Of a DNA stretch of 64,000 nucleotides, positions 6,601 to 41,693 are shown piece after piece. The stretch comes from an uncultured Anaerolineaceae bacterium (lineage in GTDB: Bacteria > Chloroflexota > Limnocylindria > Limnocylindrales > CSP1-4). The DNA lies in NCBI GenBank assembly GCA_964513505.1, contig CAZENL010000003.1:8-64007 (forward strand). Direction: 5' to 3'. Each line of letters begins with the position of its first letter. Within the stretch, counting starts at the first letter, position 1. Position numbers and translations under genes: made by a program. The notes below the pieces were generated by a model. That model had not been told where the DNA came from. It ran no database searches and saw nothing but the letters and a program-made list of their open reading frames with translations.

Positions 6601-7725
6601 TTGACCAATCCTGCGCGCCGCTACGCGGCCATCGCCATCGCGATCGTGCTGATCATCGGGGTCAGCGCGGCCATCTTCTCGTCCGTGCGGGACCGGCTGG
6701 CACCATCCACAGTGCCCGTGCAGGGCCTGATCGGGTCTGAGAAGCTGCCCTTCTTCCAGGACGCGCGCGTGATCGCCGCGTTCAAGCGAGGCGGCTACGA
6801 CGTGACGGTCAGGACCTCCGGCTCACGGGCCATCGCCAACGCGGACCTGTCCCAGCAGGACTTCGGCTTCCCGGCCGGGAGCCCGGCTGCGGCGGAGATC
6901 CTCAAACGCAACCCCGGCAGCACCAGCGTGGTCCCGTTCTTCACGCCCATGGCGATCGCCTCGTGGCAGCCGATCGTTGACCTGCTCACGACCGCTGGTG
7001 TGGTCAAGCAGCAGGCCGGCTACCAAACGCTCGACATGGCCGCCTACATGGCCATGGTGGCCAAGGACACGCGCTGGAAGGACCTGCCGAACAACACCAC
7101 GTATTCGGTCAACAAGAGCATCCTCATCACGTCGACGGACGTGCGCAGCTCCAACTCCGCGGCGATGTACCTGTCCATCGCCAGTTACGTGGTCAACGGT
7201 GACAACATCGTCCAGAACGATGCCAACATCGACACCATCGTCCAGCAGACCGCTCCGCTCTTCCTGCGGCAGGGCTTCGTCGAAGCGAGCTCCGAAGAGC
7301 CGTTCGACGACTATCTCGTGCAGGGTATGGGCAAGGCGCCGCTGGTGATGATCTACGAGTCGCAGTTCATCGCGCGGGCAGCTGCCAATGACGGCAGCAT
7401 CACGCCGCAGATGGTGCTGCTCTACCCTGAACCGACGATCTACTCCAAGCACACCTTCGTGGGGCTCACGGCCGCCGGCAAGAGCTTTGGCGATTTCCTC
7501 AACACGGATCCGGAAGTACGCACCCTGGCCACCGACTATGGCTTCCGGACGTCCGACACGGCAGCCTTCCAGACCTTCGTGACCAGCCACCAGCTCAGCG
7601 TTCCGTCGAGCCTGAACGACGTGATCGAGCCGCCCACGTACGAGACGCTCGAGTCGATGATCACCCGCTTCGAAGCCCTCTACAGCGGCTCGCTGCCCTC
7701 CCCGGCTCCAGAAACCAGCCCATAG
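6601..7725 (+). CDS. Signal-anchored periplasmic-binding-protein (PBP) fold protein, orphan (no ABC partner)
   Basis: The start is TTG. The N-terminus, RRYAAIAIAIVLIIGVSAAIF, is a positive patch followed by a TM anchor. The remainder resembles the N-terminal domain of the 9097-10662 product and extracellular solute-binding proteins. Confidence 0.75.
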   Translation: MTNPARRYAAIAIAIVLIIGVSAAIFSSVRDRLAPSTVPVQGLIGSEKLPFFQDARVIAAFKRGGYDVTVRTSGSRAIANADLSQQDFGFPAGSPAAAEILKRNPGSTSVVPFFTPMAIASWQPIVDLLTTAGVVKQQAGYQTLDMAAYMAMVAKDTRWKDLPNNTTYSVNKSILITSTDVRSSNSAAMYLSIASYVVNGDNIVQNDANIDTIVQQTAPLFLRQGFVEASSEEPFDDYLVQGMGKAPLVMIYESQFIARAAANDGSITPQMVLLYPEPTIYSKHTFVGLTAAGKSFGDFLNTDPEVRTLATDYGFRTSDTAAFQTFVTSHQLSVPSSLNDVIEPPTYETLESMITRFEALYSGSLPSPAPETSP

Positions 7726-7760
7726 CCATCGCAGGCCCAAACGACCCAAAGGAGTTCCCG

Positions 7761-9074
7761 ATGACCGAATCGTCCCTGAACCTCGGCGATGGCACCTCGG
7801 CGCAGCCCGGGCAGCAATTGGCCGCCGCGGCGGCGCCGGCCACAACCGACGCGGCGACCCTGGAAGCGGCCACCCAGACGGCCACCCTGACCCTCACACC
7901 GCCGGACGCCGTGACCGCCGTGGCGCCGGACCAGGCCGCAGGCGCGGTCAAGCTTGACCCCGCCGAGACCGCCAAGCTGGACGGCATGGTGACGCGCTAC
8001 CTGGATGCCGTGACCACGCTGGACGTCCACGACGCGGCCTTCCAGGCCAAGGTGGACGACATCCAGAAGCTCGGCGACGCGGACATCAAGGCATCGGCGC
8101 AGGTCTCCAACCGGCTGCTGGACAAGCCGCTGGCGGCCATGTCGCAGGGTGGCGTTGGCGAGGGTTCGTCGATCTCCAAGTCGCTGCTCAACCTGCGCCA
8201 CACGGTCGAGGACCTGGACCCCTCCAGCGAGGGCGACCTGCTTTCCCCGCACAAGATCCTGGGCATCATCCCCTTCGGCGACAAGGTGCGCGACTACTTC
8301 CAGAAATACCAGTCCAGCCAGGCGCACCTCAACGCGATCATCACGTCGCTCTACCAGGGACAGGACGAGCTCCAGAAGGACAACGCGGACATCGAGCAGG
8401 AGAAGGCCAACCTGTGGGCCACCATGGGCCGCCTGCGGCAGTACGTCTACCTGGGCCAGAAGCTGGACGCGGCCCTGACCGCCCGCATCGCCACCATCGG
8501 GGCGACGGACGCGGATCGAGCCAAGGTGCTCAATGACGACCTGCTGTTCCCCGTCCGCCAGAAGGTCCAGGACCTGCTCACCCAGCTGGCCGTGAGCGTC
8601 CAGGGCTACCTGGCGCTTGACCTGATCCGGCGCAACAACGTCGAGTTGATCAAGGGCGTCGACCGCGCCACCACCACCACGGTCTCCGCACTGCGCACGG
8701 CGATCATCGTGGCCCAGGCCCTGGGCGACCAGAAGCTGGTGCTTGACCAGATCACGGCGCTCAACACCACCACCGGCTCGCTGATCGAGTCGACCGGCAA
8801 GATGCTGCGCCAGCAGTCGGCCGACATCAGCAAGCAGGCGTCGTCGGCGACCGTGGACGTGGCCAAGCTCCAGCAGGCGTTCCAGGACATCTACGCCACC
8901 ATGGACGAGATCGACGGCTTCAAGGTCAAGGCGCTGGACAACCTGGAGCAGACGATCACCGCGCTCTCGACCGAGATCGACAAGTCGCAGAGCTACGTGG
9001 ACCGGGCACGCGCCCAGGAACCCGCCACGCCCGGCCAGCCTGCGCTCGGCGACTCGGGCAGCTTCACCGGCTGA
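7761..9074 (+). CDS. telA: TelA / YaaN family toxic-anion-resistance protein
   Basis: An AAGGAG Shine-Dalgarno sequence precedes the ATG. The protein reads as TelA-like over its whole length (e.g. LFPVRQKVQDLLTQLAVSVQGYLALDLIRRNNVELIKGVDRATTTTVSALRTA). The N-terminal ~60 aa are low-complexity. Confidence 0.85.
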   Translation: MTESSLNLGDGTSAQPGQQLAAAAAPATTDAATLEAATQTATLTLTPPDAVTAVAPDQAAGAVKLDPAETAKLDGMVTRYLDAVTTLDVHDAAFQAKVDDIQKLGDADIKASAQVSNRLLDKPLAAMSQGGVGEGSSISKSLLNLRHTVEDLDPSSEGDLLSPHKILGIIPFGDKVRDYFQKYQSSQAHLNAIITSLYQGQDELQKDNADIEQEKANLWATMGRLRQYVYLGQKLDAALTARIATIGATDADRAKVLNDDLLFPVRQKVQDLLTQLAVSVQGYLALDLIRRNNVELIKGVDRATTTTVSALRTAIIVAQALGDQKLVLDQITALNTTTGSLIESTGKMLRQQSADISKQASSATVDVAKLQQAFQDIYATMDEIDGFKVKALDNLEQTITALSTEIDKSQSYVDRARAQEPATPGQPALGDSGSFTG

Positions 9075-9096
9075 CCCTGGGTCCGAGGTCCGATCC

Positions 9097-10662
9097 ATGC
9101 CCCGCCGCCTGACGGCATTCCTGCTGGCGCTGCTTCTGGGCGTCCTCGCGGCCGGCTGCAGCAGCGAGCCGGATAGTTCCAACACGCTCACGGTACTGGC
9201 GGGTTCGGAGCTCCAGGACCTCGCGCCGATGTTGCCGGACATCCAGCAGGCCACCGGCGTCAAGCTCGTGCTCAGCTACATCGGCACGCTCGACGGCGCC
9301 GAGCAGATCGCCAACGGCGATCCCTCCGATGCCGCCTGGTTCAGCCAGGGCAAGTACCTGCAGCTGCTGCCCAACACGGCCAGCCATATCAAGGCCTCGC
9401 AGTCGATCATGCTCAGCCCGGTGGTCATCGGCGTAAAGCAGTCGGTGGCTCGGAGTTTCGGCTGGGAGAACAACCCGAACGTGACCTGGAAGGACATCCA
9501 GGCGAAGTCGGCCGACGGATCGTTCACGTTCGCGATGACCAACCCGGCTGCCTCCAACAGCGGCTTCACCGCGCTGATCGGAGTCGCCTCCGCGCTCTCC
9601 GGCAGCTCGGACGCCATAGACACCGGCACCATCGACACGGCGGCTCTGACGCAGTTCTTCCGCGGACAGACCGTGACGGCCGGCAGCTCCGGCTTCCTGG
9701 CGGACACCTACGTGCGCCAGCAGGATTCGGTCGACGGGATGATCAACTACGAGTCCGTGCTGATGGGGCTCAACAATGCCGGCACCCTGCACGAGCCGCT
9801 CGACCTGATCTACCCCAAGGAAGGCATCGTCACCGCGGACTACCCGCTCATGCTCCTGAACGCGGACAAGCAGGCCGCGTACGACAAGGTCGTGGCCTAC
9901 CTCCGCACGCCGGATGTCCAGAAGCGAATCGAGTCAGACACCCTTCGCAGGCCCGCCGTGCCCGGCGTGGCAGTGGACCCGCGCTTCCCGACCAACCTGA
10001 TCGAGTTGCCCTTCCCGTCCAAGCTGGACACGATCAATGCCCTGCTGACGGTCTACCTGGATCAGATCCGCCAGCCCGCGTCGGCGATCTTCGTGCTGGA
10101 TGTCTCGGGCTCCATGGACGGCGACCGCCTCGATTCGCTCAAGACGGCGCTGAGTGCCCTGACCGGCACGGACACGTCCCTCACCGGCACGTTCGCGCGG
10201 TTCCGTGCGCGTGAGAACGTGACGTTCCTGACCTTCTCGACGGACGTGGATCCGCCGCAGGAGTTCACAATCGACGACACGGATCCGAACTCGGCCGACA
10301 TGCAGGCCATCCGGAGTTACATCGACAACCTGCAGGCAGGCGGTAGCACGGCCATCTACTCCGCGCTCGCCAAGGCCTACGACCTGGTTGGCCAGGCGCA
10401 GGCCGCCGACCCCAACCGGCTCTACTCGGTGGTGCTCATGACCGACGGCGAGAACAACAGCGGCCTCGACGAAGCCACCTGGCAGAGCCAGCTGGCGGCC
10501 CTGCCGGAGGCCGTCCGCAACGTGCACACCTACCCGATCCATTTCGGCGACAGCAGCCCCGAGGCCTTGCAGGCCATCGCGACGGCGACCGGAGGCAAGC
10601 TCTTCGACGCCCAGTCAACATCGCTGCAGACCATCTTCAAGCAGATCCGCGGCTACCAGTGA
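9097..10662 (+). CDS. Lipoprotein with an N-terminal PBP-fold domain and a C-terminal von Willebrand A (vWA) domain
   Basis: The signal peptide has a lipobox (LLLGVLAAGC). MIDAS residues are intact (FVLDVSGSMDG ... VVLMTDGENN). Confidence 0.85.
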   Translation: MPRRLTAFLLALLLGVLAAGCSSEPDSSNTLTVLAGSELQDLAPMLPDIQQATGVKLVLSYIGTLDGAEQIANGDPSDAAWFSQGKYLQLLPNTASHIKASQSIMLSPVVIGVKQSVARSFGWENNPNVTWKDIQAKSADGSFTFAMTNPAASNSGFTALIGVASALSGSSDAIDTGTIDTAALTQFFRGQTVTAGSSGFLADTYVRQQDSVDGMINYESVLMGLNNAGTLHEPLDLIYPKEGIVTADYPLMLLNADKQAAYDKVVAYLRTPDVQKRIESDTLRRPAVPGVAVDPRFPTNLIELPFPSKLDTINALLTVYLDQIRQPASAIFVLDVSGSMDGDRLDSLKTALSALTGTDTSLTGTFARFRARENVTFLTFSTDVDPPQEFTIDDTDPNSADMQAIRSYIDNLQAGGSTAIYSALAKAYDLVGQAQAADPNRLYSVVLMTDGENNSGLDEATWQSQLAALPEAVRNVHTYPIHFGDSSPEALQAIATATGGKLFDAQSTSLQTIFKQIRGYQ

Positions 10663-11444
10663 GCTTGCGCAACCGCCTCGAGACCTTTCTCTATTCGCGA
10701 CGCAACATCGCGGGCAGCCTGCTCGCGCTCGGCGGTCTGGCGCTCTTCTTCACCGGCCTCGTCAGCGGCCCGTTGTGGGCCCCCGTGGTCGTGGGGCTCT
10801 ACGCGATCGGCGTTTTGCTGGTCCCCGCAGAGAAACCGCTGGATCTGAGCATGGACAGCAGTGCCGATGCCGCCGCGGTCCGCGCCGGGCTGGATCGCCT
10901 GCTGGTGAACATCCGAGGGAGCGTTGCGGACGACATCTACGTCCGGGTCGCCAACATCTGCACATCCATCGAGGCCACCCTGGCTGCGGCGCCGACGGAC
11001 CTCGGCACCGCGGATCCCAACGTCTTCCTCATCCGCCAGACCGCACTGGATTACCTGCCCGCTGCCCTCTCCGCCTATCTGGCGCTGCCCCGGAGCTTCG
11101 CGGAGAGCAGCATCGCGGCGGGCGGCCTCACGCCGCACGATGAATTGCGGGACCAGTTGCGGCTCATGTCCGACAAGCTGCAGGAGGTCGCGGACGACAT
11201 CGCGCGCCACGACTCCGACCGGCTCCTTGCCAACGGCCGCTTCCTGGCCGAGAAGTTCGGCACCAGCTCGCTGGACGTGGCTGCGGCGCCGGCCGTCGCG
11301 CTGCCGCCGGCCGACGCAGAGGTCTCGGTGCCCGCGGAGGTGTCCGTGCCTGCCGCAGTGTCCGTGCCAGCCACGGCGGTCGCCGCTCCACCCGTCGCCG
11401 TGGAGCAGCCCGAGGTCGAGCGAGCGCGCGAGCGCACCCACTGA
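10659..11444 (+). CDS. XpaC-like (5-bromo-4-chloroindolyl phosphate hydrolysis protein family) 2-TM helical protein
   Basis: Its GTG start overlaps the upstream stop (GTGA). Two N-terminal TM helices (IAGSLLALGGLALFFTGLV and LWAPVVVGLYAIGVLLV) precede a helical cytoplasmic domain. The family assignment rests on architecture and on the known TelA-XpaC neighbourhood, not on a search. Confidence 0.6.
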   Translation: MSLRNRLETFLYSRRNIAGSLLALGGLALFFTGLVSGPLWAPVVVGLYAIGVLLVPAEKPLDLSMDSSADAAAVRAGLDRLLVNIRGSVADDIYVRVANICTSIEATLAAAPTDLGTADPNVFLIRQTALDYLPAALSAYLALPRSFAESSIAAGGLTPHDELRDQLRLMSDKLQEVADDIARHDSDRLLANGRFLAEKFGTSSLDVAAAPAVALPPADAEVSVPAEVSVPAAVSVPATAVAAPPVAVEQPEVERARERTH

Positions 11445-14251
11445 TGGCGGACACAGATCCGCCTGGTCTGAGCCTGGCCGTCGACTGGCTGCAGCGCAAC
11501 ATCGACGAACTGGCCCAGGTCACCCGGCGCGTCAATGCGCTTCCGGGCGCAACGCCGGGGCCGGCGGCGCCCGGCGTGCTGCCGGCAGTGACGGCCCAGG
11601 CGGGGGCTTCCCCGGATGAGCTCATGGCCGCGCTCGGAGCCGTGCCAGGTGCCGATCCGGCGACGGCTGCGGCGTCCACAGGCCCAGCCGCAATGCCCTC
11701 GGCCGCGCCCGAACCTGCGGCGCCAGCCACGGTGCCCGCGGCGACTCAGCCCGCGGCGACTCAGCCCGCGAGCACCACGCCGCTCCTCGATCAGCTCGGT
11801 CGGGATCTGACCAAGCTGGCCGCAGACGGGATGCTCACGCCCTGCATCGGCCGTGACGCCGAGATGGAGTGGCTGATCGAGGTCCTGTGCCGCACCGAGA
11901 AGCGCAACCCGGTCCTGCTGGGACCCGCGGGCGCCGGCAAGACCTCGATCGTGGAGGGCCTCGCCCAGCGCATCGCGGCGGGCAAGGTACCGGACCTGCT
12001 CAAAGGAACGCGCATCATCGAGATCCCGCTCGGCGGCCTGGTTGCCGGCACGCAGTACCGAGGCCAACTCGAGCAGCGCCTTCAGCAGCTGCTGGCGGAG
12101 GCCTCCCAGCCCGGCATCGTGCTGTTCTTCGACGAGATCCACCTCCTGGCGGGCGTCGGCCAGAGCGAGGGCGGCGTTGGCGCCGCCGAGCTGCTCAAAC
12201 CCGCCCTGGCGCGCGGCGACATCGCGGTCATCGGGGCAACCACGCCGGAGGCCTACCGCGCGTCCATCGAGAAGGACACCGCGCTCGCCCGGCGCTTCAC
12301 CACGATCTCCATCACCGAGCTCACCCGCGACCAGACGCGGCCGATCCTGCAGAACGTCCGCGACACGCTCCAGCGCGTCCGCGGGGTGACCGTCTCCGAC
12401 GACGCCCTGGACGTGCTGCTGGACTTCGCGGACACCTCGATCACCAACCGGCGTTTCCCGGACAAGGCCATCGACCTGCTCCAGCAGGCCGTGGCGCAGG
12501 CGGTCGTCGAAGGGCGGTCCACCGTCGACAAGGCCGATGCCCAGCGCACCACGGAGCTGTGGTCGGACCGCGCGTCGTCGGCGCCGACCCTGGAGCGCTT
12601 CGGCCGGGACCTGATCCGGCTGGCCAAGGCGGGGCAGCTGGGGCCGATCGTGGGCCGCGACAAGGAGATCCAGGCGATCATCGAGATCCTGATCCGCCAC
12701 TCCAAGCGCAACCCGATCCTCCTTGGACCTGCCGGCGCCGGCAAGACGGCCATCGTGGAGGGACTGGCCATCCGGATCGCGTCCGGCAACGTGCCGGCGC
12801 CCCTCCAGGGCGTGCGCCTCTTCGATGTCTCGCTGACGGCCCTTGCCAGCGCCGTGGCCACGGAGCCCTCGGTCATCGAGGACTTCCTGCTGGAGGCGCG
12901 GCACCCGTCCGTGATCCTCTTCCTGGACGAGATCCACGTCATTGCCTCGCCCGACGTGCGCCAGATCGGGGAGGCCCTCAAGCCGGCCCTGGCACGTGGC
13001 GAGATCGCCTGTATCGGTGCCACGACCGGCGAGGAGTACCAGGCCAGCATCGAGCCGGAGACCGCCCTGGCGCGCCGCTTCACGCCGATCGCGGTCGAGC
13101 CCATGGACCCGGCCGGCGTGAGGGCCGTGATGCTGTCCGTGGCCAAGAGCCTGGGCACGCTGCGGAACGTGGATGTCCAGGAGAGCGCGGTGGACCTGCT
13201 CATTGGTCTGGCCGACCGGTTCCTGCCCAATCGGTCGTTCCCGGACAAGGGCGTGGACGTGCTGGAGCAGTCAGTGGCCTACGCGGTCGCCAACGGACGC
13301 AGCGTGGTCGACGAGGCCACGGCCAGGGAAGCCGTGGCGGCCATGGTGGGCATGCCGCTGGACCCCACCGATTCGCTGGCCGCGCTCGCCGCGGAGATTG
13401 CTCGACGTGGACTGCTGGACGCCGCGAGCGCCTCGGCCCTCATCGCCCGCCTCCAGGTCACCATGCGCGGCCTGGACGCCGGCCGGCAGCGACCCGATGC
13501 CGTGGTCCTGTTGTATGGCGGTGCGGCCGGCAACGCCGATGCGCTCGCCGAGGCCGTGGCGCGGACGCTCTTCGGTCGCGGCACGGCCATCGTGGACGTG
13601 GAGCTCTCCGGCATGACCGGCGAGGAGTCCATCTCCTCGTTGCTCGGCTCGGCTCCCGGCCTCGTCGGATCGGACAGGGCGCTGCCCATGCAGGAGCTGC
13701 GCCGGTCGCCATGGCAGGTGCTGCTGCTGCGCGGCATCGACCGCTGTGCGGGCTCGATCAGGGAGACGGTCGCGGCGGCCCTCCAGGCGGGCGCCTTCAC
13801 CGATGCCATGGGCCGGACCATTCCGCTCGGGTCAACGGTCACCGTCCTGACGGCCCCGGCGCTGGATCCGGGAGCGGCCGCGGGCCAGGTGGACACCACG
13901 GCCCTGCTCCGAGCCGCGCTGGGCACCACGCTGGCCGATGCCTGTGACGTGATCACGGGCTCGCTCGCGGGCGTTGCACCGGGCGATCGGGCGACCTGGA
14001 TCCGCAGCCAGCTGCTGGCGCCCTTGGCCGACCGCTTCGAACAGCAGGGCTTCGAGGTCACGATCGATCAGGCACTCGTCGACTGGCTTGACCACCACCT
14101 GCCAACAGACGGCAGTCAGCCGGACGGATTCATCGACCGAACCGTTGCACCAGCCCTGGCAGCCGGGTTGAAACCGGCACACCGCAAGTACCTGGCAACC
14201 GTCACCAACGACGCCCCCACCCTCGTCGAAGCGGGCAAGTCCGCGGGCTGA
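11444..14251 (+). CDS. Atypical Clp/Hsp100-like AAA+ protein (D1 - D1 - degenerate D2)
   Basis: Its ATG overlaps the upstream stop (ATGA). Two complete D1-type modules are present: GRDAEMEW..LLGPAGAGKTSIVEGLA..IVLFFDEIHLL and GRDKEIQA..LLGPAGAGKTAIVEGLA..VILFLDEIHVI. The third, D2-like module has a dead Walker A (YGGAAGNAD) and a dead Walker B (LLLRGIDRC). The N-terminal ~110 aa are Ala/Pro-rich. Confidence 0.88.
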   Translation: MADTDPPGLSLAVDWLQRNIDELAQVTRRVNALPGATPGPAAPGVLPAVTAQAGASPDELMAALGAVPGADPATAAASTGPAAMPSAAPEPAAPATVPAATQPAATQPASTTPLLDQLGRDLTKLAADGMLTPCIGRDAEMEWLIEVLCRTEKRNPVLLGPAGAGKTSIVEGLAQRIAAGKVPDLLKGTRIIEIPLGGLVAGTQYRGQLEQRLQQLLAEASQPGIVLFFDEIHLLAGVGQSEGGVGAAELLKPALARGDIAVIGATTPEAYRASIEKDTALARRFTTISITELTRDQTRPILQNVRDTLQRVRGVTVSDDALDVLLDFADTSITNRRFPDKAIDLLQQAVAQAVVEGRSTVDKADAQRTTELWSDRASSAPTLERFGRDLIRLAKAGQLGPIVGRDKEIQAIIEILIRHSKRNPILLGPAGAGKTAIVEGLAIRIASGNVPAPLQGVRLFDVSLTALASAVATEPSVIEDFLLEARHPSVILFLDEIHVIASPDVRQIGEALKPALARGEIACIGATTGEEYQASIEPETALARRFTPIAVEPMDPAGVRAVMLSVAKSLGTLRNVDVQESAVDLLIGLADRFLPNRSFPDKGVDVLEQSVAYAVANGRSVVDEATAREAVAAMVGMPLDPTDSLAALAAEIARRGLLDAASASALIARLQVTMRGLDAGRQRPDAVVLLYGGAAGNADALAEAVARTLFGRGTAIVDVELSGMTGEESISSLLGSAPGLVGSDRALPMQELRRSPWQVLLLRGIDRCAGSIRETVAAALQAGAFTDAMGRTIPLGSTVTVLTAPALDPGAAAGQVDTTALLRAALGTTLADACDVITGSLAGVAPGDRATWIRSQLLAPLADRFEQQGFEVTIDQALVDWLDHHLPTDGSQPDGFIDRTVAPALAAGLKPAHRKYLATVTNDAPTLVEAGKSAG

Positions 14252-14441: not shown

Positions 14442-16079
14442 TCAGTCGTTGTAGAGGCGTTCCTCGATCAGCTTCTCCTGCACGGTCCGCCCGTTGGCGT
14501 CGAAGCAGGAGTACTCGAAGTGCTTCTGGAACTCCAGGTCGATCGAGTGCTGGCCGCCGCGGTTCTTCTCCACCGAGACGATGACCCACTCCCGGAAGCG
14601 CTGTGCCTGGTAGGGGTTGAACTCGATGTTGACCTTGGCGACGATGTTGTACTTCTCGTTGAGGATCAGGATGACGTCCGCCTCGTAGTTGATGGCGGAT
14701 GAGCCGCGCAGGTGGTAGTTGCGCAGGCGGGCCGCCTTGAGGCCCTCCTTGTCGGCAGCGACGATCGAGATCATCGGCACGTCCAGGGACAGCGCGATGT
14801 CCTTGAGGCCGTTGACGATGTAGGTGACCTTCTCCGTCTCCGTGTTCGGCTCCGGGATGACCGGCACCTTCTGCATGTAGTCCACGAAGACCACCAGCCG
14901 GCGGTCGCCGGAGAGCTGCTTGTAGCGCGTGATCAGCGAGCGCATGTTCTCGACGGTGCTGGTGGTCTGCGAGCCGCGCAGCAGGTAGAGATTCGGGCCG
15001 TAGCGCGCGATGCGCTCGAGCGCCGGCTTGAGGCGCGGGTTGGCGGACAGGTCGGCCGATTCGCCGCCCTGCGCGAGCCACGTCCCCAGGATCTCGCGGC
15101 GGACGTCCTGCAGCTTCACGCCGCCGGTCTTGGCGGGCAGCTGGGCGAGCACGGATTCCATGGCGATGATGCGGTTGAGGAGGTACTCCTCGTCGTGCTC
15201 GAAGCAGATGTACAGCACGCTGGCCTGTCCACCGAGGACGATGTTGCGGGCCATCTGCACGGCCATGGTGGTCTTGCCGGTGCCCTGCGCGCCGCCGATG
15301 AGCAGCAGCTCTCCAGCACGCAACCCACCGCCGATGGTCTTGTCCAGGGGCGTGAAGCCGAGCGGCACCGGCTGGTACTGGTCCACCGTGCCGGCGCTGA
15401 CCTTGTCCGCCAGCGTGCCGAGGACCTCTGTCGCGGAGCGCGGCTGGACCAGGGCAACCCCCGTGTCCACGGTCCAGGTCCGGTCGTCGGGCGCGGGCGC
15501 GGCAGGCACCGCCTTGGGAGCAGGCGGCATGGGGAAGGGCGGAGCGACGCGAGCCGGATGCTGGGCGAGTTCCGCTGGCTTCAGCTGCGGCGTTGACTCG
15601 CGGGGCACCTGCGGGAAGGCGCGCAGGCCCGCGGCAGCGGGTGCCGCGTCCAGGCGCGCGATCGACGTGGTCGATGGCCAGTCACCGTCGGGTAGCTCAG
15701 CCTCCGCCGCGGCATCGTCCGGGTTGACCTCCGGGCGGGCGGCCCACTGCTCAGTCGTGGCGAAGTCGGACGGCGGTGGCGGCTCGTACGCGGAAACGCC
15801 GTTGCCGGGGACGGGCGACGGTGCGTGCGGCTCCGGATCAACCGCCAGCTGGGCACGCGATCCCGACTCGAAACCGTCTCCATCGTCCTCGAAGGCAAAG
15901 GAGAGCGCGCCCGACGAGACGAACGGATCGTCTCGCTCCATCGGCGTGGCTTCCAGGCGCGGAAGAATGGCCGGTTGCCACGGGCGTGGCGCGTGGTCGA
16001 CATGGGCCGGCGCGGCCGTGCGAACCCCGGCGTCCTCGTCCCGCGTGTCGGGGTGACGGTTGAGTCGGCTGATCTTCAC
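14442..16079 (-). CDS. DnaB-C-terminal-domain (RecA-fold) ATPase with a disordered N-terminus
   Basis: The Walker A is LLIGGAQGTGKTTMAVQMA and the Walker B is LVVFVDYMQKV, followed by a DnaB/KaiC-like C-terminal region. The first ~240 aa are Pro/Ala/Asp-rich and lack the DnaB N-terminal helical domain. The start is either the GTG at 16079 or the ATG at 15941. Confidence 0.8.
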   Translation of the reverse strand: MKISRLNRHPDTRDEDAGVRTAAPAHVDHAPRPWQPAILPRLEATPMERDDPFVSSGALSFAFEDDGDGFESGSRAQLAVDPEPHAPSPVPGNGVSAYEPPPPSDFATTEQWAARPEVNPDDAAAEAELPDGDWPSTTSIARLDAAPAAAGLRAFPQVPRESTPQLKPAELAQHPARVAPPFPMPPAPKAVPAAPAPDDRTWTVDTGVALVQPRSATEVLGTLADKVSAGTVDQYQPVPLGFTPLDKTIGGGLRAGELLLIGGAQGTGKTTMAVQMARNIVLGGQASVLYICFEHDEEYLLNRIIAMESVLAQLPAKTGGVKLQDVRREILGTWLAQGGESADLSANPRLKPALERIARYGPNLYLLRGSQTTSTVENMRSLITRYKQLSGDRRLVVFVDYMQKVPVIPEPNTETEKVTYIVNGLKDIALSLDVPMISIVAADKEGLKAARLRNYHLRGSSAINYEADVILILNEKYNIVAKVNIEFNPYQAQRFREWVIVSVEKNRGGQHSIDLEFQKHFEYSCFDANGRTVQEKLIEERLYND

Positions 16080-16209: not shown

Positions 16210-17628
16210 TCAGGCCGGCGTCTTGCCCAGGGCGTGCCAGTAATGCGCGATGGCATGCGTGCCGCCGTGGTAGTTGGCGAGCACCATCGATTCGTTGGGG
16301 GCGTGGGCATGGTCGTCCGGATTGGCGAAGCCCAGCAGGACCACGGGCAGCTTCAACATCGAGGCGAACGACGCGGCGGCGGGGATCGAGCCTCCACCGC
16401 GCGTGAACAGGGGCGCCTGTCCAAAGACCTCCTCCAGGACGGAGGCGGCCGCCTGGACCGCTGGATGGTCGACGCTCAACACGCTCCACATGCCCAGGTT
16501 GATCAGCTGCACGTCCACGTTGACGCCACGTGGCGCCAGCTCCAGGACCCGGTCACGGACCCGTTCGAACGTCCGCTGCGGGTCCATGTCAGCCACCAGC
16601 CGCGTGCTGATCTTGGCGTGTGCGTGCGCGGGGATGATGGTCTTGCTGCCCTCGCCCTCGAACCCGCCCCACAGCCCGTTGATGTCCAAGGTCGGCCGGG
16701 CACCGGTGCGTTCCAGCACGGTGTACTCCGGCTCGCCGAACAGCTCCGGCACGCCGGCGGACTGGCGGAATGCCTCGTCCTCCAGCGGCAGGCGCGCGAA
16801 CTCGGCCCGATCACGCTCCGTGAGCGGACGCACCTCGTCGTAGAAACCGGGCACGTCCACGCTGCCGGTCGGGGTCTTGAGGCCTGCCAGGATCGTGGCC
16901 AGCGCCTGCGCCGGGTTCTGGACATTGCCGCCGAAGCCGCCCGAATGCAGGTCGACCGGCGGACCGGTCACGTCGATCTGGGCGTACATCAGGCCGCGCA
17001 GCCCGATGCAGATCGCGGGCAGGTTGCCCTCGAAGAAGCCCGTGTCGCTGACGACCGCGAGATCGGCGCCGAGGCGATGCCGGTTGGCCTCCAGCCAGGC
17101 GTCGAAGTTGGTCGAGCCGGACTCCTCCTCGCCCTCGAAGACGTAGCGGACGTTCACGGGCAGGCGGCCCGCCGTCTTCAGCCACGCTCGCGCGGCCCAG
17201 AGGTGGAGATGCGCCTGGCCCTTGTCGTCGGCGGCGCCCCGGGCGTAGATGCGCCCGTCCTCGATGCGCGGCTCGAACGGCGGCCGCACCCACAGGTCCA
17301 GCGGGTCCACCGGCTGCACGTCGTAATGGCAGTAGACCAGGACGGTCGGCGCACCCTCTGCGTGGAGCCAGTCGGCGTAGAAGATCGGGTGGCCCGGGGT
17401 CGGCGAGATCTCGACGTTCTCGAGGCCGCTGGCGCGCGCGTGCTCGGCCATGAACTCGGCCGCCCGCAGCATGTCCTGCTGGCGCTCGCGCAGCGTCGAG
17501 ATGCTGGGGATCTCCAGGAAGGCCCGGTAGTCGTCCAGGCGCTCCTGCTGCGTCTGGTCGATCCAGGCGTCAACCGCCGCCAGCGTGCCGTCGTCCGCCG
17601 TTGTCTTGGCCAAACCTGTGCCTCCCAT
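16210..17628 (-). CDS. M20 family dipeptidase / metallohydrolase
   Basis: The sequence contains VYCHYDVQPVDP and ARGAADDKGQ, and its overall layout matches the ArgE/DapE/CPG2 family. Confidence 0.88.
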   Translation of the reverse strand: MGGTGLAKTTADDGTLAAVDAWIDQTQQERLDDYRAFLEIPSISTLRERQQDMLRAAEFMAEHARASGLENVEISPTPGHPIFYADWLHAEGAPTVLVYCHYDVQPVDPLDLWVRPPFEPRIEDGRIYARGAADDKGQAHLHLWAARAWLKTAGRLPVNVRYVFEGEEESGSTNFDAWLEANRHRLGADLAVVSDTGFFEGNLPAICIGLRGLMYAQIDVTGPPVDLHSGGFGGNVQNPAQALATILAGLKTPTGSVDVPGFYDEVRPLTERDRAEFARLPLEDEAFRQSAGVPELFGEPEYTVLERTGARPTLDINGLWGGFEGEGSKTIIPAHAHAKISTRLVADMDPQRTFERVRDRVLELAPRGVNVDVQLINLGMWSVLSVDHPAVQAAASVLEEVFGQAPLFTRGGGSIPAAASFASMLKLPVVLLGFANPDDHAHAPNESMVLANYHGGTHAIAHYWHALGKTPA

Positions 17629-17700
17629 TCACCGTCCTGTTGGTCGGCATTCAGGGTACCGCCGAAGCCGCCCGGCACGCCGCGCGGCACGTCCGCGCCG

Positions 17701-17735
17701 GAAAACGAAGAACCGGCCGCAGTGGCGACCGGTTC
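17701..17735 (-). terminator. Intrinsic terminator downstream of ftsH
   Basis: A GAACCGG / CCGGTTC stem (17710-17716 and 17729-17735) is followed on the minus-strand RNA by UUCGUUUUC. Confidence 0.55.
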
Positions 17736-17779
17736 CGTATCTCTGGTTGATGCGCTCCGGCCAAGGCCGGATGCCGGCG

Positions 17780-19765
<1,986 letters not shown>

Positions 19766-37261: not shown

Positions 37262-37663
37262 CTATCGACGCAGGGTCAGGCTCAGCTCCACCAGGCCGGC
37301 CATGACGATCACGAACCCGGCGATCGGAAGGCTGAACGCGTCCAGGGCGCGAAGGACCACCAGCAGCGCCACGACCAGGGCACACAGGAGCGCCCGACGC
37401 CCTGCACGCAGCCAGTCTCCCTGGTGGGCGATCCGACGCCGCTGCGCGAAGCCGACCAGCCAGAACACGGGCCACAGCGTCGCGCCGACGGCGACCCCGA
37501 GCAGGATGGCACCCGCCATCTGGACGCTGGAATCGCCGACGGGCGACTGTGTGGTGAAGAGCCACGCCACGCCCGTCCACGCCGCAACGGCCGCGACGAT
37601 GAGGATCAGGTTGGCGACTCGGTCCCTGGCGTACACCGGGTCCGAGTCTACGGCCCCAGTCAT
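37262..37663 (-). CDS. Small 4-TM membrane protein of unknown function
   Basis: This is trimmed to the ATG at 37663, which overlaps the helicase-nuclease stop (ATGA). It has four hydrophobic segments. Confidence 0.62.
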   Translation of the reverse strand: MTGAVDSDPVYARDRVANLILIVAAVAAWTGVAWLFTTQSPVGDSSVQMAGAILLGVAVGATLWPVFWLVGFAQRRRIAHQGDWLRAGRRALLCALVVALLVVLRALDAFSLPIAGFVIVMAGLVELSLTLRR

Positions 37664-40600
37664 GCGGCGCTCTGCGGACAGATCTCCCGGTACGGGCAGA
37701 AGCCGCACGTCATGTAGTCCGGGCTTGCCGCGAAGTTGCCGGCACGGATGCCGTCCGCTGCCGTTTCCAGCGTCTTGCGGGCCTTCTCCAGACGCGCCGG
37801 GTCCGGCACGATCCGTCCAACGACGCCGCTCTCGAGGAAGCGCAGCTGCACGGCCGCCGGGAGGGCACCGGTCTCTGCCTCGTGGGCCAGTGCGTAGATC
37901 TGCAGCTGCAGCGAGTCCTTCGCCCGTTGGGTCGCCACCTTCTGGTCGCGAACGTCGCTGGACTTGTAGTCCGTGATGACGCTGCCTTCCGGCGTCTCGT
38001 CGACGCGGTCGTAGCGGCCGCGCACCAGGTCCCGTCCGAAGTGGACCGCGAAAGGCCGCTCCACGGCGATCGGGATCGACGCGTCCGGCCGCGCCTCGTC
38101 CATGAGGAAGTGCCGCAAGGCCCCCTGCCCGGCCGCGAACCGCGCGTCCTCATGGGCGCGTGACAGGAATCCCTCGCTGGACCAGTGCGTGGCAAACACG
38201 TCCAGCAGCTGTGCCTCCGTCATGGAGCGTCCGCGGATACGGGCCGTGTGGAATGCGGCAACCGCCTGGTGGAGCGCGTTTCCGAGGATGAGCGCGTGGT
38301 GGGGTGGCGTGGGAATGCGGACGATGTGACGCAGCCGGTACTTGAGCGGACAGGACAGGTAGTCGTCCACCTGTGAGTAGCTCAATGACAGGCTCGTCGG
38401 CTCTCCCGGAGCGACCTTGACGGGTGGCGGAGAGGGCTGCGCGGCCGCCGGCTGGCGGTTGCCGTCCAGCGCGGCAATCAGCTCGGCAAGCCCTCCTGCA
38501 GCCGCCGGCAGGATGGCCGGCTCCGGCTGGTCCAGGGCCTCCTGGATGAAGGGTGAGACGCGCCGGCGCCGCCCCGAAGCCGTCTCGTGCGAAGAGCTCA
38601 GGACCAGTTCATCCCGAGCCCGTGTCATGGCCACGTAGCAGAGCCTCCGCTCCTCCGCCCAGGCCACCTCCTCGATGTCCGAACGCAGTCGCAGCGCCTC
38701 CGGCATCGAAAGGCGGTGACGCCGGTCCCGCGAGGGAAAGCGGCCTTCCGTGAGGCCGGCGAGGAAGACCACAGGGAACTCAAGACCCTTGGCCTTGTGG
38801 ACGGTCAGCACCGAGACCGCCTCCTCGTCGGCCGGAGAGTCATCCGCGTGATCCGCCCCGGACTCCACGAGGACCTGAAGGTGCGGCACCAGGAACGGCA
38901 CGCGGTCCTCCGCCAGCAACGCGCCGTGCGCACGGACCACCTCGAAGAATCGCGCCACGTTGCGGAGAGCGGCATCGTCACCGCTCTCGGCGGATGCGAT
39001 GAGTGCCCCAAGCCGGCCGCTCCGCTTGAGCTGGCGGTACAGCACCTCCCAGGTGGGCATCTGGTGCGACGCCTCCACGGCGTCCCGAACGTCCGAGACG
39101 AGCCGTTCCAGGCCCTGCCGAGACCGGGATTGCAGGCGCAGCAGACCCGGTTGTTCCACCAGCTCCGTGGCGACCTCCCAGAAAGAGCGGTGGCGCCGCC
39201 GCGCAGTTTCCAGCAGTGCCGTCAGGTCCTGCCCGCCCAACCCGTACGGCTCTCCCGTGGCGACCGCGTAGAGATCCATCGAGCTGGTCGGATCCGCGAC
39301 GGTGCGCAGAAATGCCAACAGGTCCCGCACGTCTCGCCGCGCGTACAGGCCACTCGCGCCGCTGAAACGCCACGGGATGCCGCGCACGTCCAGGCTGCGC
39401 AGGAATCGGCGCGCGTCCCCGTTGGTGCGCACCAGGATGGCGATGTCCGACGGTGAGGCGCCTGCCTGGATGCGCTCGGCAACGGACGCTGCCACGCCGT
39501 CCGCTTCCGCCTCCTCGTTGCGATAGGCCACGTGCCGCACCGGCGCGGGCCGCTTGCCGCGACGCGTGGAGATGGGCTCCTTCTCCACGCCATCGTGCCC
39601 CTGCACGCGATGCGGCTCGTTGTGCCGGATCAGCCGTTGCGCCGCGGCCAGGATGGGCGTCCGCGAGCGGTAGTTGCGCCGCAGCACGATTCGGCGCAAT
39701 GCCGGGTAGACCCGTGCAAGGCCGAGCATGTTCTCCACGGCCGCGCCCCGGAACGCGTAGATCGCCTGGTCGTCATCCCCGACCACCATCACGTTGCCAC
39801 GTGCCCCGGCCACGGCGCGAACGAGTGCCAGCTGGACAGCGTTGGTGTCCTGGAACTCGTCCACCACGACGTAGCGGAAGCGATCCTGGATCTCCGCCCG
39901 GACCGCCGCCCGCTCCTCCAGGAGACGGACTGCCAGCGCCACCTGGTCCGCGAAGTCGATCAGGTTCCGCTCCGCCAGCAGCTCTTCATACCGGGAGAAC
40001 GCATGGGCGACCTCCCGGTGTCCGGCCGCTTCCTCGATGAGAGCCTCACAGGCCGAGGCCTGGGCAGAATCCGTGGCGCCCTCCAGGGCCGCACGCGAGC
40101 CCGCCTCGAGTTCCTGGGCAAAGGCCAGGTACTCCAGAGGCGAGATCTGTTCGTCCTTCGCCCGGCTGATCAGCTCCACGAGAGCGTCCAGGAAACGCGT
40201 CGGGTCCGCCAACGGCCGGTAGCGCTCCAGCCCGAGTTCGAAGAGGTGCTCCCGCAGGAGCACCTGGGACTCGGCGCGCCCGATGACGCGCGGTTCCGCG
40301 TTGCGGCCCAGCTCGAGCCCGAATTCCCGCAGGAGCCGGTCACCGAACGCGTGGAACGTGTGGATGGCAGCGTCCGCGCGGCCGTACGGCACGAGCACGT
40401 CCACGCGAGCCTGCATCTCCGCGGCGGCTGCGTCCGTGAACGTCAGGGCCAGGATCTCCGACGGCCGTGCCCGCTTGGTGGCGATGAGCCACGCCACGCG
40501 GCGGGTGATGACCTCTGTCTTGCCGGTGCCCGGTCCCGCGACCACGAGCAACGGCCCCTCCCCGTGCGTGACGGCCTGGCGCTGCTCGCGGTTGAGGCCG

Positions 40601-40701
40601 CGCAAGAGCGGGCGGACGCTGTCCAGCGAGACGGGCGGCTCCGCGCGCGATGGCCTTGGGGCGGCGGTGACGGGTCCGAGGAACTGCGATCGCATCGACA
40701 T
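37660..40701 (-). CDS. UvrD/PcrA-type SF1 helicase fused to a C-terminal PD-(D/E)XK (RecB/Cas4-like, Cys-cluster) nuclease
   Basis: This is trimmed to the ATG at 40701 (MSMRSQFLG...). Motifs are LLVVAGPGTGKTEV and YVVVDEFQDTN. The C-terminus has ...VITDYKSSD... and CGFCPYREIC. Confidence 0.9.
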   Translation of the reverse strand: MSMRSQFLGPVTAAPRPSRAEPPVSLDSVRPLLRGLNREQRQAVTHGEGPLLVVAGPGTGKTEVITRRVAWLIATKRARPSEILALTFTDAAAAEMQARVDVLVPYGRADAAIHTFHAFGDRLLREFGLELGRNAEPRVIGRAESQVLLREHLFELGLERYRPLADPTRFLDALVELISRAKDEQISPLEYLAFAQELEAGSRAALEGATDSAQASACEALIEEAAGHREVAHAFSRYEELLAERNLIDFADQVALAVRLLEERAAVRAEIQDRFRYVVVDEFQDTNAVQLALVRAVAGARGNVMVVGDDDQAIYAFRGAAVENMLGLARVYPALRRIVLRRNYRSRTPILAAAQRLIRHNEPHRVQGHDGVEKEPISTRRGKRPAPVRHVAYRNEEAEADGVAASVAERIQAGASPSDIAILVRTNGDARRFLRSLDVRGIPWRFSGASGLYARRDVRDLLAFLRTVADPTSSMDLYAVATGEPYGLGGQDLTALLETARRRHRSFWEVATELVEQPGLLRLQSRSRQGLERLVSDVRDAVEASHQMPTWEVLYRQLKRSGRLGALIASAESGDDAALRNVARFFEVVRAHGALLAEDRVPFLVPHLQVLVESGADHADDSPADEEAVSVLTVHKAKGLEFPVVFLAGLTEGRFPSRDRRHRLSMPEALRLRSDIEEVAWAEERRLCYVAMTRARDELVLSSSHETASGRRRRVSPFIQEALDQPEPAILPAAAGGLAELIAALDGNRQPAAAQPSPPPVKVAPGEPTSLSLSYSQVDDYLSCPLKYRLRHIVRIPTPPHHALILGNALHQAVAAFHTARIRGRSMTEAQLLDVFATHWSSEGFLSRAHEDARFAAGQGALRHFLMDEARPDASIPIAVERPFAVHFGRDLVRGRYDRVDETPEGSVITDYKSSDVRDQKVATQRAKDSLQLQIYALAHEAETGALPAAVQLRFLESGVVGRIVPDPARLEKARKTLETAADGIRAGNFAASPDYMTCGFCPYREICPQSAA

Positions 40702-40723
40702 GACGCGAGCCTCGGACCGTGCC

Positions 40724-40742
40724 GTGACAGCTAGCCTGTCAC
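40724..40742 (-). other. Intercistronic stem-loop (7-bp stem, 5-nt loop)
   Basis: GTGACAG-ctagc-CTGTCAC lies 5 nt after the TelA-paralog stop and 22 nt before the helicase ATG. No U-tract follows it. Confidence 0.4.
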
Positions 40743-40747
40743 ACGCC

Positions 40748-41683
40748 TCAACGCTTCCCGGACGACCCCACGGGCCAATCTCCGATGACGTGCTGCTTGA
40801 CGTCTTCCACGCGCTGGATCGCGGCAAAAACGTCGTCCCAGGCATCCTGGAGCGAGGCCGCGCCGACCCGGGCCGCGACGGCCGCCGCGGCGACACCACC
40901 GCCCTGCGCGGCTACGGCACGACCAACGTCCATCCGCTGCCGGAGTGCGTCGCCAACGAGCTGGGACGTGCGCAGGGCCGCGATCGTCGTGCCCGTTGCC
41001 GTGCGAACGGCGCCGATCAGGTCGCGGTTGTTCTGCTCCACGATGCGCAGCGCCGCGGAAGCCTGGAGCGCGACCGCAAGCTGGGTTGCCAGGTCCGCCC
41101 GCCGGCCGCGCAATGGCAGCAGGACGTCGTCCCGCACGAGCGCCGCCTCCTGCGGCCCGAGGTCCCGCAGGCGCTCCGAGAGGCGCTCGTCCATGCGCTC
41201 GGCCATGAAGGCATAGCGCTCGAGCATCTGGACCTGCGTCCGCAGCACGTGCTGTTCCTGGAGCAGCATGGCCGTGTCCTGCTCCAGGGCGCGGCTGCCG
41301 TCGCCGAGCGCCTGGAGGACATCGTCGATGCGGCGCCCGATCCGAGCCGAGCGCTTCGCATCCGTCCGCCCGGCCACGATCTCGTGCTGGAGCTCCTCCA
41401 CGCCCTCGCGCAGGCGCTTCAGATTGTCGGCAATCTCCGCCTGGAAGCGCACGTCCCGCCGTTCGGCCAGCCGTCGCTCGATGATTGATCCGGCCTGCAG
41501 CTCCGATGCGCCGAGACGGCCCATCTCGGCGATGGCGTTGTTGCGCGCGGGGTCGAAGCGGTCGCGCACCGCGGCGTTGACGAAATCCGTGGCAATGGTG
41601 TCGATCCGGGCCGCGATGTTGGCTGGGATGGACGGCGGCGTCCGTGGCTCAGCGTCCGCCGTCCCTCCCCGTGGGGTTGGCAG
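40748..41683 (-). CDS. Second TelA-family paralog (start codon unresolved)
   Basis: DDVLLPLRGRRADLATQLAVALQASAALRIVEQNNRDLIGAVRTATGTTIAALRTS aligns by eye with DDLLFPVRQKVQDLLTQLAVSVQGYLALDLIRRNNVELIKGVDRATTTTVSALRTA of the 7761-9074 TelA. The conserved core begins before the first in-frame ATG (41524) or GTG (41569) downstream of the flotillin stop. I give the CTG at 41683 as a provisional start. Confidence 0.7.
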   Translation of the reverse strand: MPTPRGGTADAEPRTPPSIPANIAARIDTIATDFVNAAVRDRFDPARNNAIAEMGRLGASELQAGSIIERRLAERRDVRFQAEIADNLKRLREGVEELQHEIVAGRTDAKRSARIGRRIDDVLQALGDGSRALEQDTAMLLQEQHVLRTQVQMLERYAFMAERMDERLSERLRDLGPQEAALVRDDVLLPLRGRRADLATQLAVALQASAALRIVEQNNRDLIGAVRTATGTTIAALRTSQLVGDALRQRMDVGRAVAAQGGGVAAAAVAARVGAASLQDAWDDVFAAIQRVEDVKQHVIGDWPVGSSGKR

Positions 41684-41693
41684 GTCCGTCGCG

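Follow-up and report, generated by a model that had tools for sequence, protein, structure and literature searches.

What does a Clp-type AAA+ protein do when it carries two D1 modules and a D2 that has lost its ATP site, and which partner does it serve? This question is raised by a gene at positions 11444 to 14251 (+) of a 64,000-nucleotide stretch of DNA (the window) from an uncultured Anaerolineaceae bacterium of the Chloroflexota, class Limnocylindria (GenBank assembly GCA_964513505.1, contig CAZENL010000003.1). The gene encodes a 935-amino-acid (aa) AAA+ protein and is the last of a same-strand run, U374-TelA-SBP-vWA-X-AAA+. TelA is widespread, is named for "tellurite/toxic anion resistance," and has been linked to envelope stress and antibiotic stress; X is a predicted membrane protein. 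A sequence-only reading of the window had described the AAA+ protein as Clp-like, with duplicated D1 modules and a pseudo-ATPase D2. We judge the chances to be evenly balanced that the protein is a lineage-specific, three-tiered Hsp100/Clp-type machine that serves a TelA-X membrane-stress module and is neither a general chaperone nor a partner of ClpP.

Module layout of the AAA+ protein

The reading frame is unbroken over its 935 codons, and the surrounding DNA is about 70% G+C. The open reading frame, Pfam, alignments to the Protein Data Bank (PDB), and 118 homologues together delimit an N-terminal helix, a linker, and three modules, which we call D1a, D1b, and pseudo-D2 (D2'). Pfam identified two AAA domains, two AAA_lid_9 domains, and one AAA_2 domain (aa 688 to 803, E = 2.9e-9); AAA_lid_9 is the lid specific to the D1 of Hsp100 proteins. 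D1a (aa 111 to 379; 11774 to 12580, +) and D1b (aa 380 to 640; 12581 to 13363, +) are 48% identical over 258 aa in a module-to-module alignment (E = 6e-78), a likeness that by this measure is far above chance. PDB alignments matched aa 103 to 362 to the D1 of Staphylococcus aureus ClpC with 231 bits and aa 622 to 804 to the D2 of the same protein with 50 bits. D1b by itself scored 157 bits against the ClpC D1 and 2 bits against the ClpC D2, and the middle module is therefore a second D1. The sequence-only reading had asked whether this module might be a D2 after all; the match to the ClpC D1 and the second AAA_lid_9 answer that it is not.

The motifs that the reading had listed for both D1 modules are present in each. 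The linker motif is LGRDL...IGRDAEMEW at aa 118 and FGRDL...VGRDKEIQA at aa 386, the Walker A motif GPAGAGKT occurs at aa 160 and aa 428, the Walker B motif DEIH occurs at aa 230 and aa 495, and the LKPALARG(D/E)I..IGATT sensor region was found twice. Only the first module has the Tyr context of the pore loop, as had been proposed (AGTQYRGQLEQR at aa 201 versus ASAVATEPSVIED at aa 468). The predicted absence of an M-domain also held, with about 20 aa separating the first lid from D1b and the second lid leading straight into a D1-D2 linker; this linker, which joins D1b to the third module, is ClpA-like.

The third module (aa 641 to 935; 13364 to 14251, +) had been described as a D2 without Walker A and B motifs. 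Where the aligned ClpC D2 has GPTGVGKT and DEIEKA, this module has GGAAGNAD and RGIDRC (RGID in the module's own motif set). The module also has the loop GSAPGLVGSD, retains the Arg of FTDAMGR, and ends in a degenerate small domain.

We found no Clp_N match with Pfam (E ≤ 0.01), in agreement with the proposal that a short helix and an Ala/Pro-rich linker stand in place of the N-domain. The conserved helix (aa 8 to 33, GLSLAVDWLQRNIDELAQVTRRVNAL; 11465 to 11542, +) is about 25 aa long, and its motif, GLDLAFxWLQRNLDELTxAxRR, recurs throughout the family with variable flanks. We presume that this helix is a docking element that substitutes for the Clp N-domain. The Ala/Pro/Ser-rich, low-complexity linker that follows it (aa 34 to 110; 11543 to 11773, +) varies in length among homologues; in full-length members of the family, the whole stretch ahead of D1a is about 68 to 211 aa long.

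Residue conservation across the family

A word-indexed protein search gave more than 100 full-length homologues with 48 to 77% identity, and the counts below refer to 118 full-length family members. D1b, which in the window protein has K434, D495-E496, and R544-R545, has both Walker motifs in 118/118 members and the Arg-finger pair RR in 118/118. Its pore loops 1 and 2 are short and nonaromatic. An aromatic residue at any position of the pore loop was found in a single member (1/118), and two deletions are fixed in all 118, one of 3 aa in pore loop 1 and one of 4 aa between Walker B and LKPAL, in the pore-loop-2 region.

D1a has the reverse pattern. The window protein has K166, D230-E231, R283-R284, and Tyr205 within AGTQYRGQ. 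Across the family, the aromatic (Tyr) of the pore loop is retained in 115/118 members, whereas Walker A and Walker B occur together in 92/118 and the Arg-finger pair in 92/118. In the other 26 members, both Walker motifs and both Arg fingers of D1a have gone together, by three different substitution routes (GPDGIGKA/EGVD, APEGTGRT/PDIH, and APAGTGKT/DDVD). By these counts D1b, and not D1a, is the predicted invariant ATPase module of the family.

Walker A and B motifs were found in the D2' of none of the 118 members, so the inactivity of this module does not come from misaligning a single sequence, a possibility that the sequence-only reading had left open. Arg791 is present in 118/118, and the motif FTDAMGR is likewise invariant. 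The loop LLGSAPGL(V/I)GS(D/E), also invariant, corresponds to the GYVG loop of D2 with Leu in place of Tyr, and no member has an aromatic residue at the Tyr position (0/118). Judged by the residues that are kept, the roles of the three modules are split: D1a keeps the Tyr loop, D1b keeps the ATP site, and D2' is a predicted noncatalytic module with an invariant Leu loop.

Distribution and origin

The homologues carry automatic names, either "ClpC" or "AAA family ATPase [Candidatus Limnocylindrales]"; in JGI records the name is "ATP-dependent Clp protease ATP-binding subunit ClpC." Two peptide patterns specific to D2', run against one genome per GTDB species, gave 31 loci, all in metagenome-assembled genomes of Chloroflexota labeled Limnocylindrales or "Chloroflexia." In an exhaustive HMMER search, 1.84 billion cluster representatives yielded only one full-length triple-module representative and fragments. 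The next-ranked matches were 77 clusters of 690 to 800 aa with a single Walker A motif each.

These two-module relatives (P0242 to P0291 among them, about 700 to 770 aa long, metagenomic, and automatically named ClpC) are the closest comparison for the window protein. They have a D2 with the same loss of Walker A and B, lack an M-domain, and also fall short of the NCBIfam cutoffs for ClpV, ClpB, ClpA, ClpK, and ClpG. Their D2' is 30 to 37% identical to that of the window protein over 250 to 300 aa. They differ in having one active D1, whose pore loop is without an aromatic residue in 75/77, in retaining the Tyr loop (GYVGY) in D2 where the window protein has Leu, and in having no adjacent TelA gene.

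In a neighbor-joining tree of D1 modules with 60 bootstraps, D1a was monophyletic in 60/60 replicates, D1b in 60/60, and D1a plus D1b in 59/60, and the two-module clade was their sister. Identity within the D1a group and within the D1b group is 62 to 66%, with invariant motifs. By the module tree and the shared D2 substitutions, the inactive D2 predates the D1 duplication and is common to the larger two-module clade. The simplest history suggested by these sequences is an ancestor with one D1 and a pseudo-D2, one tandem duplication of D1 in the Limnocylindria lineage, and subsequent specialization of the copies.

Other D1-D1 proteins were found, with an AAA_lid_9 on each D1. WP_447449066.1 of Streptococcus dentiloxodontae (P0338) has a D1-D1-active D2 layout with a ClpB_D2-small domain, and P0292 and P0331 have an N-terminal region and two D1 modules without a D2. 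These proteins appear to have been duplicated independently, because their modules fall outside the clade of D1a plus D1b.

We also inspected three loci of the two-module relatives (L037, 8001 to 10238; L038, 1455 to 4083; L039, 1714 to 4357). A TY-Chap1/CesT/YbjN-like chaperone gene follows the AAA+ gene in two of the three, and those two loci adjoin type III CRISPR-associated genes (RT-Cas1, Cas2, Csx3, and RAMP). The two-module AAA+ protein and the TY-Chap1-like protein may be a CRISPR-linked accessory pair. A search of plasmids with the two-module family returned canonical ClpB and ClpV only.

The TelA-X operon

In the window, the AAA+ gene is preceded by U374 (6601 to 7725, +), which encodes an N-terminally anchored protein without a Pfam domain; the TelA gene (7761 to 9074, +; PF05816, E = 7.8e-89); a gene for an SBP-vWA lipoprotein with SBP_bac_11 and vWA domains (9097 to 10662, +); and the gene for X (10659 to 11444, +). 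The stop and start codons of the vWA and X genes overlap in GTGA, and those of the X and AAA+ genes overlap in TGATG. From this overlap, the AAA+ gene is predicted to be translationally coupled to X. A scan of the operon for promoters and terminators gave nothing above chance expectation.

The sequence-only reading had proposed a survey of whether such proteins always neighbor TelA and vWA genes. The association with TelA stood, and it extends to X with its two transmembrane (TM) segments; the vWA gene proved to be only an optional member. Gene calls placed the TelA, X, and AAA+ genes side by side in 5/5 related contigs, and tblastn did so in nearly all of 36 loci. TelA lies beside the AAA+ gene in every locus with enough flanking sequence except L027, which has no more than about 1.9 kb of flank downstream. 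X was detected in most of the 36 loci and is divergent in the L005 clade (shown for L005). The SBP-vWA gene occurs in about two thirds of the related loci, and U374 and SBP-vWA are both present or both missing in most loci, giving a five-gene form, of which U374 is the first gene, and a three-gene form. A 40.8-kb metagenome contig, L001 (ENA ERZ27245389 k141_565937), carries the same operon with 99 to 100% protein identity. The cluster representative P0001 and the window protein differ by three residues or more.

X is 261 aa long and consists of a conserved LYSRRN motif, a TM hairpin, a helical bundle of about 150 aa, and a low-complexity, disordered tail that begins near aa 206 and ends in ERERTH. 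We detected 388 relatives, all annotated "hypothetical" and none with a Pfam domain, and for X itself found no Pfam match at E ≤ 10, including to the XpaC family (PF10112). An AlphaFold2 (AF2) model of X had a predicted local distance difference test (pLDDT) score of 77; Foldseek gave nothing below E = 0.3 against the PDB, and a profile search of PDB sequences with X gave no match. The tail is 16 to 73 aa long (median, 49 aa), and 106/120 X proteins end in an ERERV(H/R)-type sequence, under a pattern that allows conservative variants.

The gene order U374-TelA-(SBP)vWA-X also occurs in two other phyla, with no AAA+ gene at either locus. In the plasmid collection, the best annotated relatives of TelA lie at these two loci, which are on plasmid NZ_CP035710 of Sphaerotilus sulfidivorans (Betaproteobacteria; L040, 5746 to 10462) and NZ_LT559118 of Nonomuraea gerenzanensis (Actinomycetota; L042, about 6938 to 11297). 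U374, TelA, and SBP-vWA proteins are 40 to 54% identical to those of the window (40 to 49% for the U374 orthologues), and X is 34 to 38% identical; an hhalign comparison of the X profile with Sphaerotilus X gave E = 5e-29. Both X proteins end 5 to 8 aa past the helical domain and lack the tail, so by these two out-groups the tail and its terminal motif appear only alongside the AAA+ protein. We counted the restriction of the X family to the AAA+ lineage as a point for a dedicated partnership. The four-gene cassette is conserved over three phyla and seems to be undescribed, with U374 and X annotated as "hypothetical." Two further TelA relatives have other settings: the Curtobacterium TelA gene is within a classical TerD cluster, and the Arthrobacter TelA gene stands alone.

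A TelA model had a moderate pLDDT of 67 and two very long helices of 77 to 91 residues. By sequence, TelA has no solved homologue. The best Foldseek matches, ClyA (E = 0.06) and Vipp1 (E = 0.24), were not significant (E values of 0.06 to 0.5, with TM scores of ≤0.3 on the query), and with a moderate model and matches of this kind we do not claim an ESCRT-III/PspA or ClyA fold for TelA.

At 40748 to 43235 (-), the window contains a divergent second TelA paralogue, which shares 27% identity with the TelA of the operon (Pfam TelA, E = 6.8e-22), directly downstream of a flotillin gene (Band_7 and Flot domains, 41694 to 43235), another pairing of TelA with a membrane scaffold in this genome. A gene for a 1,079-aa fusion of a UvrD helicase and a PD-(D/E)XK nuclease, AddA/PcrA-like, adjoins this pair (37660 to 40899, -). 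Convergent with the AAA+ gene is a gene at 14442 to 16079 (-) for a protein with a Pro/Ala-rich, disordered N terminus of about 230 aa followed by a DnaB_C/KaiC-type RecA-fold ATPase. Its product weakly matches the PADLOC mad8 model (E = 2.4e-7), and the gene is not conserved beside the AAA+ gene elsewhere save for a partial case in L017. A few kilobases downstream, M20 peptidase and FtsH genes (16210 to 19765, -) are ordinary housekeeping genes and occur also in L001.

Comparison with Clp proteins

Judged by its D1 and by the fold of its D2, the 935-aa protein belongs to the Hsp100/Clp superfamily as a divergent member. It shares with ClpC, ClpA, and ClpB a D1 with AAA_lid_9 (231 bits to ClpC), an AGTxYRG pore loop, the D1-D2 linker, and the D2 fold, and it is unlike them in the doubled D1, the D2 without Walker A and B, and the absence of Clp_N, an M-domain, and a ClpP loop. 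The (I/L/V)G(F/L) tripeptide that docks on ClpP is unconserved, with a match within aa 800 to 860 in 14/118 members, a chance-like frequency. Scores against the NCBIfam models, in bits with the cutoff second, were 487/885 for ClpV1, 480/1232 for ClpB, 446/993 for ClpA, 441/1900 for ClpG, and 428/1900 for ClpK. Because every curated Clp model scores below its cutoff, the earlier statement that this is not a canonical Hsp100 architecture is correct. The features that define ClpA, ClpB, ClpC, and ClpV (the N-domain, the M-domain, an active D2, the ClpP loop, and the curated cutoffs) all failed in comparisons of the sequence.

PADLOC gave only generic P-loop matches to the AAA+ protein (IetA and TRIP13, E ≥ 5e-10, partial) and no defense-system match to TelA, X, vWA, or U374. 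We found no description of the D1-D1-pseudo-D2 architecture or of a link between TelA and an AAA+ protein in the searchable full-text literature.

Discussion

The module architecture and the evolutionary history are well established by these analyses, and from them we infer function. A machine dedicated to TelA and X is suggested because the operon is conserved, the genes are translationally coupled, and the tail of X is distributed together with the AAA+ protein. Coupling to ClpP is unlikely because the D2 is dead and no docking loop is conserved. We propose that the AAA+ protein would form a hexamer in which D1b is the motor, its nucleotide-driven protomer movements being passed to gripping loops in the flanking tiers, with the substrate-contacting loops supplied by D1a and perhaps by D2'. 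The N-terminal helix would dock, on its flexible linker, in place of the N-domain. Threading AAA+ motors start on long unstructured tails, and this one may be recruited to, or thread, the disordered X tail that ends in ERERV(H/R). It would then remodel, disassemble, or extract the TelA-X complex under the membrane with no protease involved, and the extraction or unfolding of X, or the disassembly of TelA oligomers, would reset the TelA-X module. Such a job could be likened to that of Vps4 on ESCRT-III or NSF on SNAREs.

Within this proposal, the specific idea that a gripless D1b drives substrate through the loops of D1a and D2', with recruitment by the X tail to remodel TelA assemblies, is tentative, and we consider it rather unlikely as it stands. 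In current hand-over-hand models, gripping pore loops are moved by the ATP turnover of the same ring. In this family D1a loops are kept while the ATP site has been discarded in 26/118 members by three routes, D1b shows the reverse, and the two-module sisters show the same split. If the proteins thread substrates, force must therefore pass between tiers.

Several points weigh against the proposal. We know of no translocase whose motor ring lacks gripping loops, and the coupling of D1b to its neighboring rings is a conjecture. The D1a ATP site is intact in the window's own protein, and two of its rings may be active. The hexamer, the ATPase activity, and the contact with X or TelA are all predictions from sequence. 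The X tail is the best available clue to the target of the AAA+ protein, a clue drawn from two out-group cassettes only; a subclade of the L002 type has a short X tail that ends in QTRIV, and at L014 no X turned up by tblastn between the TelA and AAA+ genes. The analogy with ESCRT-III is without structural support, because TelA has no significant structural match.

Some of the same observations suit a scaffold or switch that does not thread, in which the ATP cycle of D1b would assemble or release TelA-X and the pore loops would form a static collar for the tail of a partner. This is a possibility to be taken seriously, although on present evidence an unlikely one. The 26/118 members with two of three rings dead still conserve the channel loops, the active ring is without gripping loops, the two-module relatives repeat the pattern, and, as general knowledge, the D2 of NSF and the D1 of p97 are precedents for structural rings. 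A static collar is harder to reconcile with the full D1a ATP site in 92/118 members, the window protein included, with a D1a loop that is the canonical translocating AGT(Q/K)YRG, and with a long unstructured X tail that suits threading. NSF, p97/Cdc48, and Pex1/Pex6 are two-tier classical AAA+ proteins in which one ring is catalytic and the other mainly structural. They resemble the present family in that stacked rings divide the work and a nonhydrolyzing ring is retained for assembly or substrate handling. They differ in belonging to another (classical) AAA+ clade and in having two tiers rather than three, and their active ring bears aromatic pore loops, whereas the always-active D1b bears none.

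A disaggregase with a general role in stress, akin to ClpB, ClpG, or ClpK and next to TelA by chance, could account for the strong partial matches to the ClpB, ClpG, and ClpK models and for FtsH and other quality-control genes nearby. We regard it as improbable, since the protein has a dead D2 and lacks both the N-domain and the M-domain through which it could couple to Hsp70; the TelA-X gene order is kept throughout the family and the start and stop codons overlap, which points to a dedicated role; and the family is confined to a single Chloroflexota class. An ordinary ClpC/ClpA-type unfoldase that feeds substrates, perhaps X or TelA, to ClpP is more improbable still. The names in the source databases say ClpC, the best PDB matches are ClpC, and the M-domain is absent, as in ClpA, but curated Clp scores are far below their cutoffs, there is no Clp_N and no conserved IGF/L-type loop, and the D2, which serves as the ClpP-docking ring and as the main motor of ClpA, is catalytically dead in 118/118. 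That the duplicated module is an assembly artifact or the gene is decaying, a suspicion that arises with a window and relatives taken entirely from metagenome assemblies, is already refuted, because the architecture is kept in 118 full-length homologues from independent assemblies, the two D1 modules of the window protein are only 48% identical, each module forms a clade of its own with 62 to 66% internal identity and invariant motifs, and the frame of the window gene is intact over 935 codons.

A dedicated TelA-X machine can be set beside what has been described for TelA in Firmicutes. XpaC, the neighbor of TelA there, is a 2-TM protein, and X has a similar topology but no XpaC-family match. 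To our knowledge, no AAA+ partner has been described for the Firmicute TelA-XpaC pair. In Firmicutes TelA is encoded beside the small protein XpaC, and the pair has been connected with stress on the membrane and from antibiotics (PMC6811118). In Enterococcus faecium, xpaC and telA have effects on phospholipid microdomains and on the binding of daptomycin, and the phenotype of xpaC is seen only with telA intact (PMC6811118); such a dependence fits a small partner in the membrane acting as a modulator of TelA. Two other publications were less informative: a published phage shock protein (PSP) survey mentions neither TelA nor Clp, and a paper on oral Actinobacteria concerns MoxR-vWA systems and an unrelated "TelA" toxin and is not relevant here.

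The restriction of the family to uncultured Limnocylindria is a practical constraint on work with the AAA+ protein, which would call for heterologous expression. If the split between motor and grip is real, these proteins would use a mode of AAA+ coupling unlike that of any characterized translocase. If the AAA+ protein is a motor that remodels TelA, it would give the first biochemical handle on how TelA acts, and a dedicated ATPase partner, together with a candidate recognition tail on X, would offer an experimental way into TelA.

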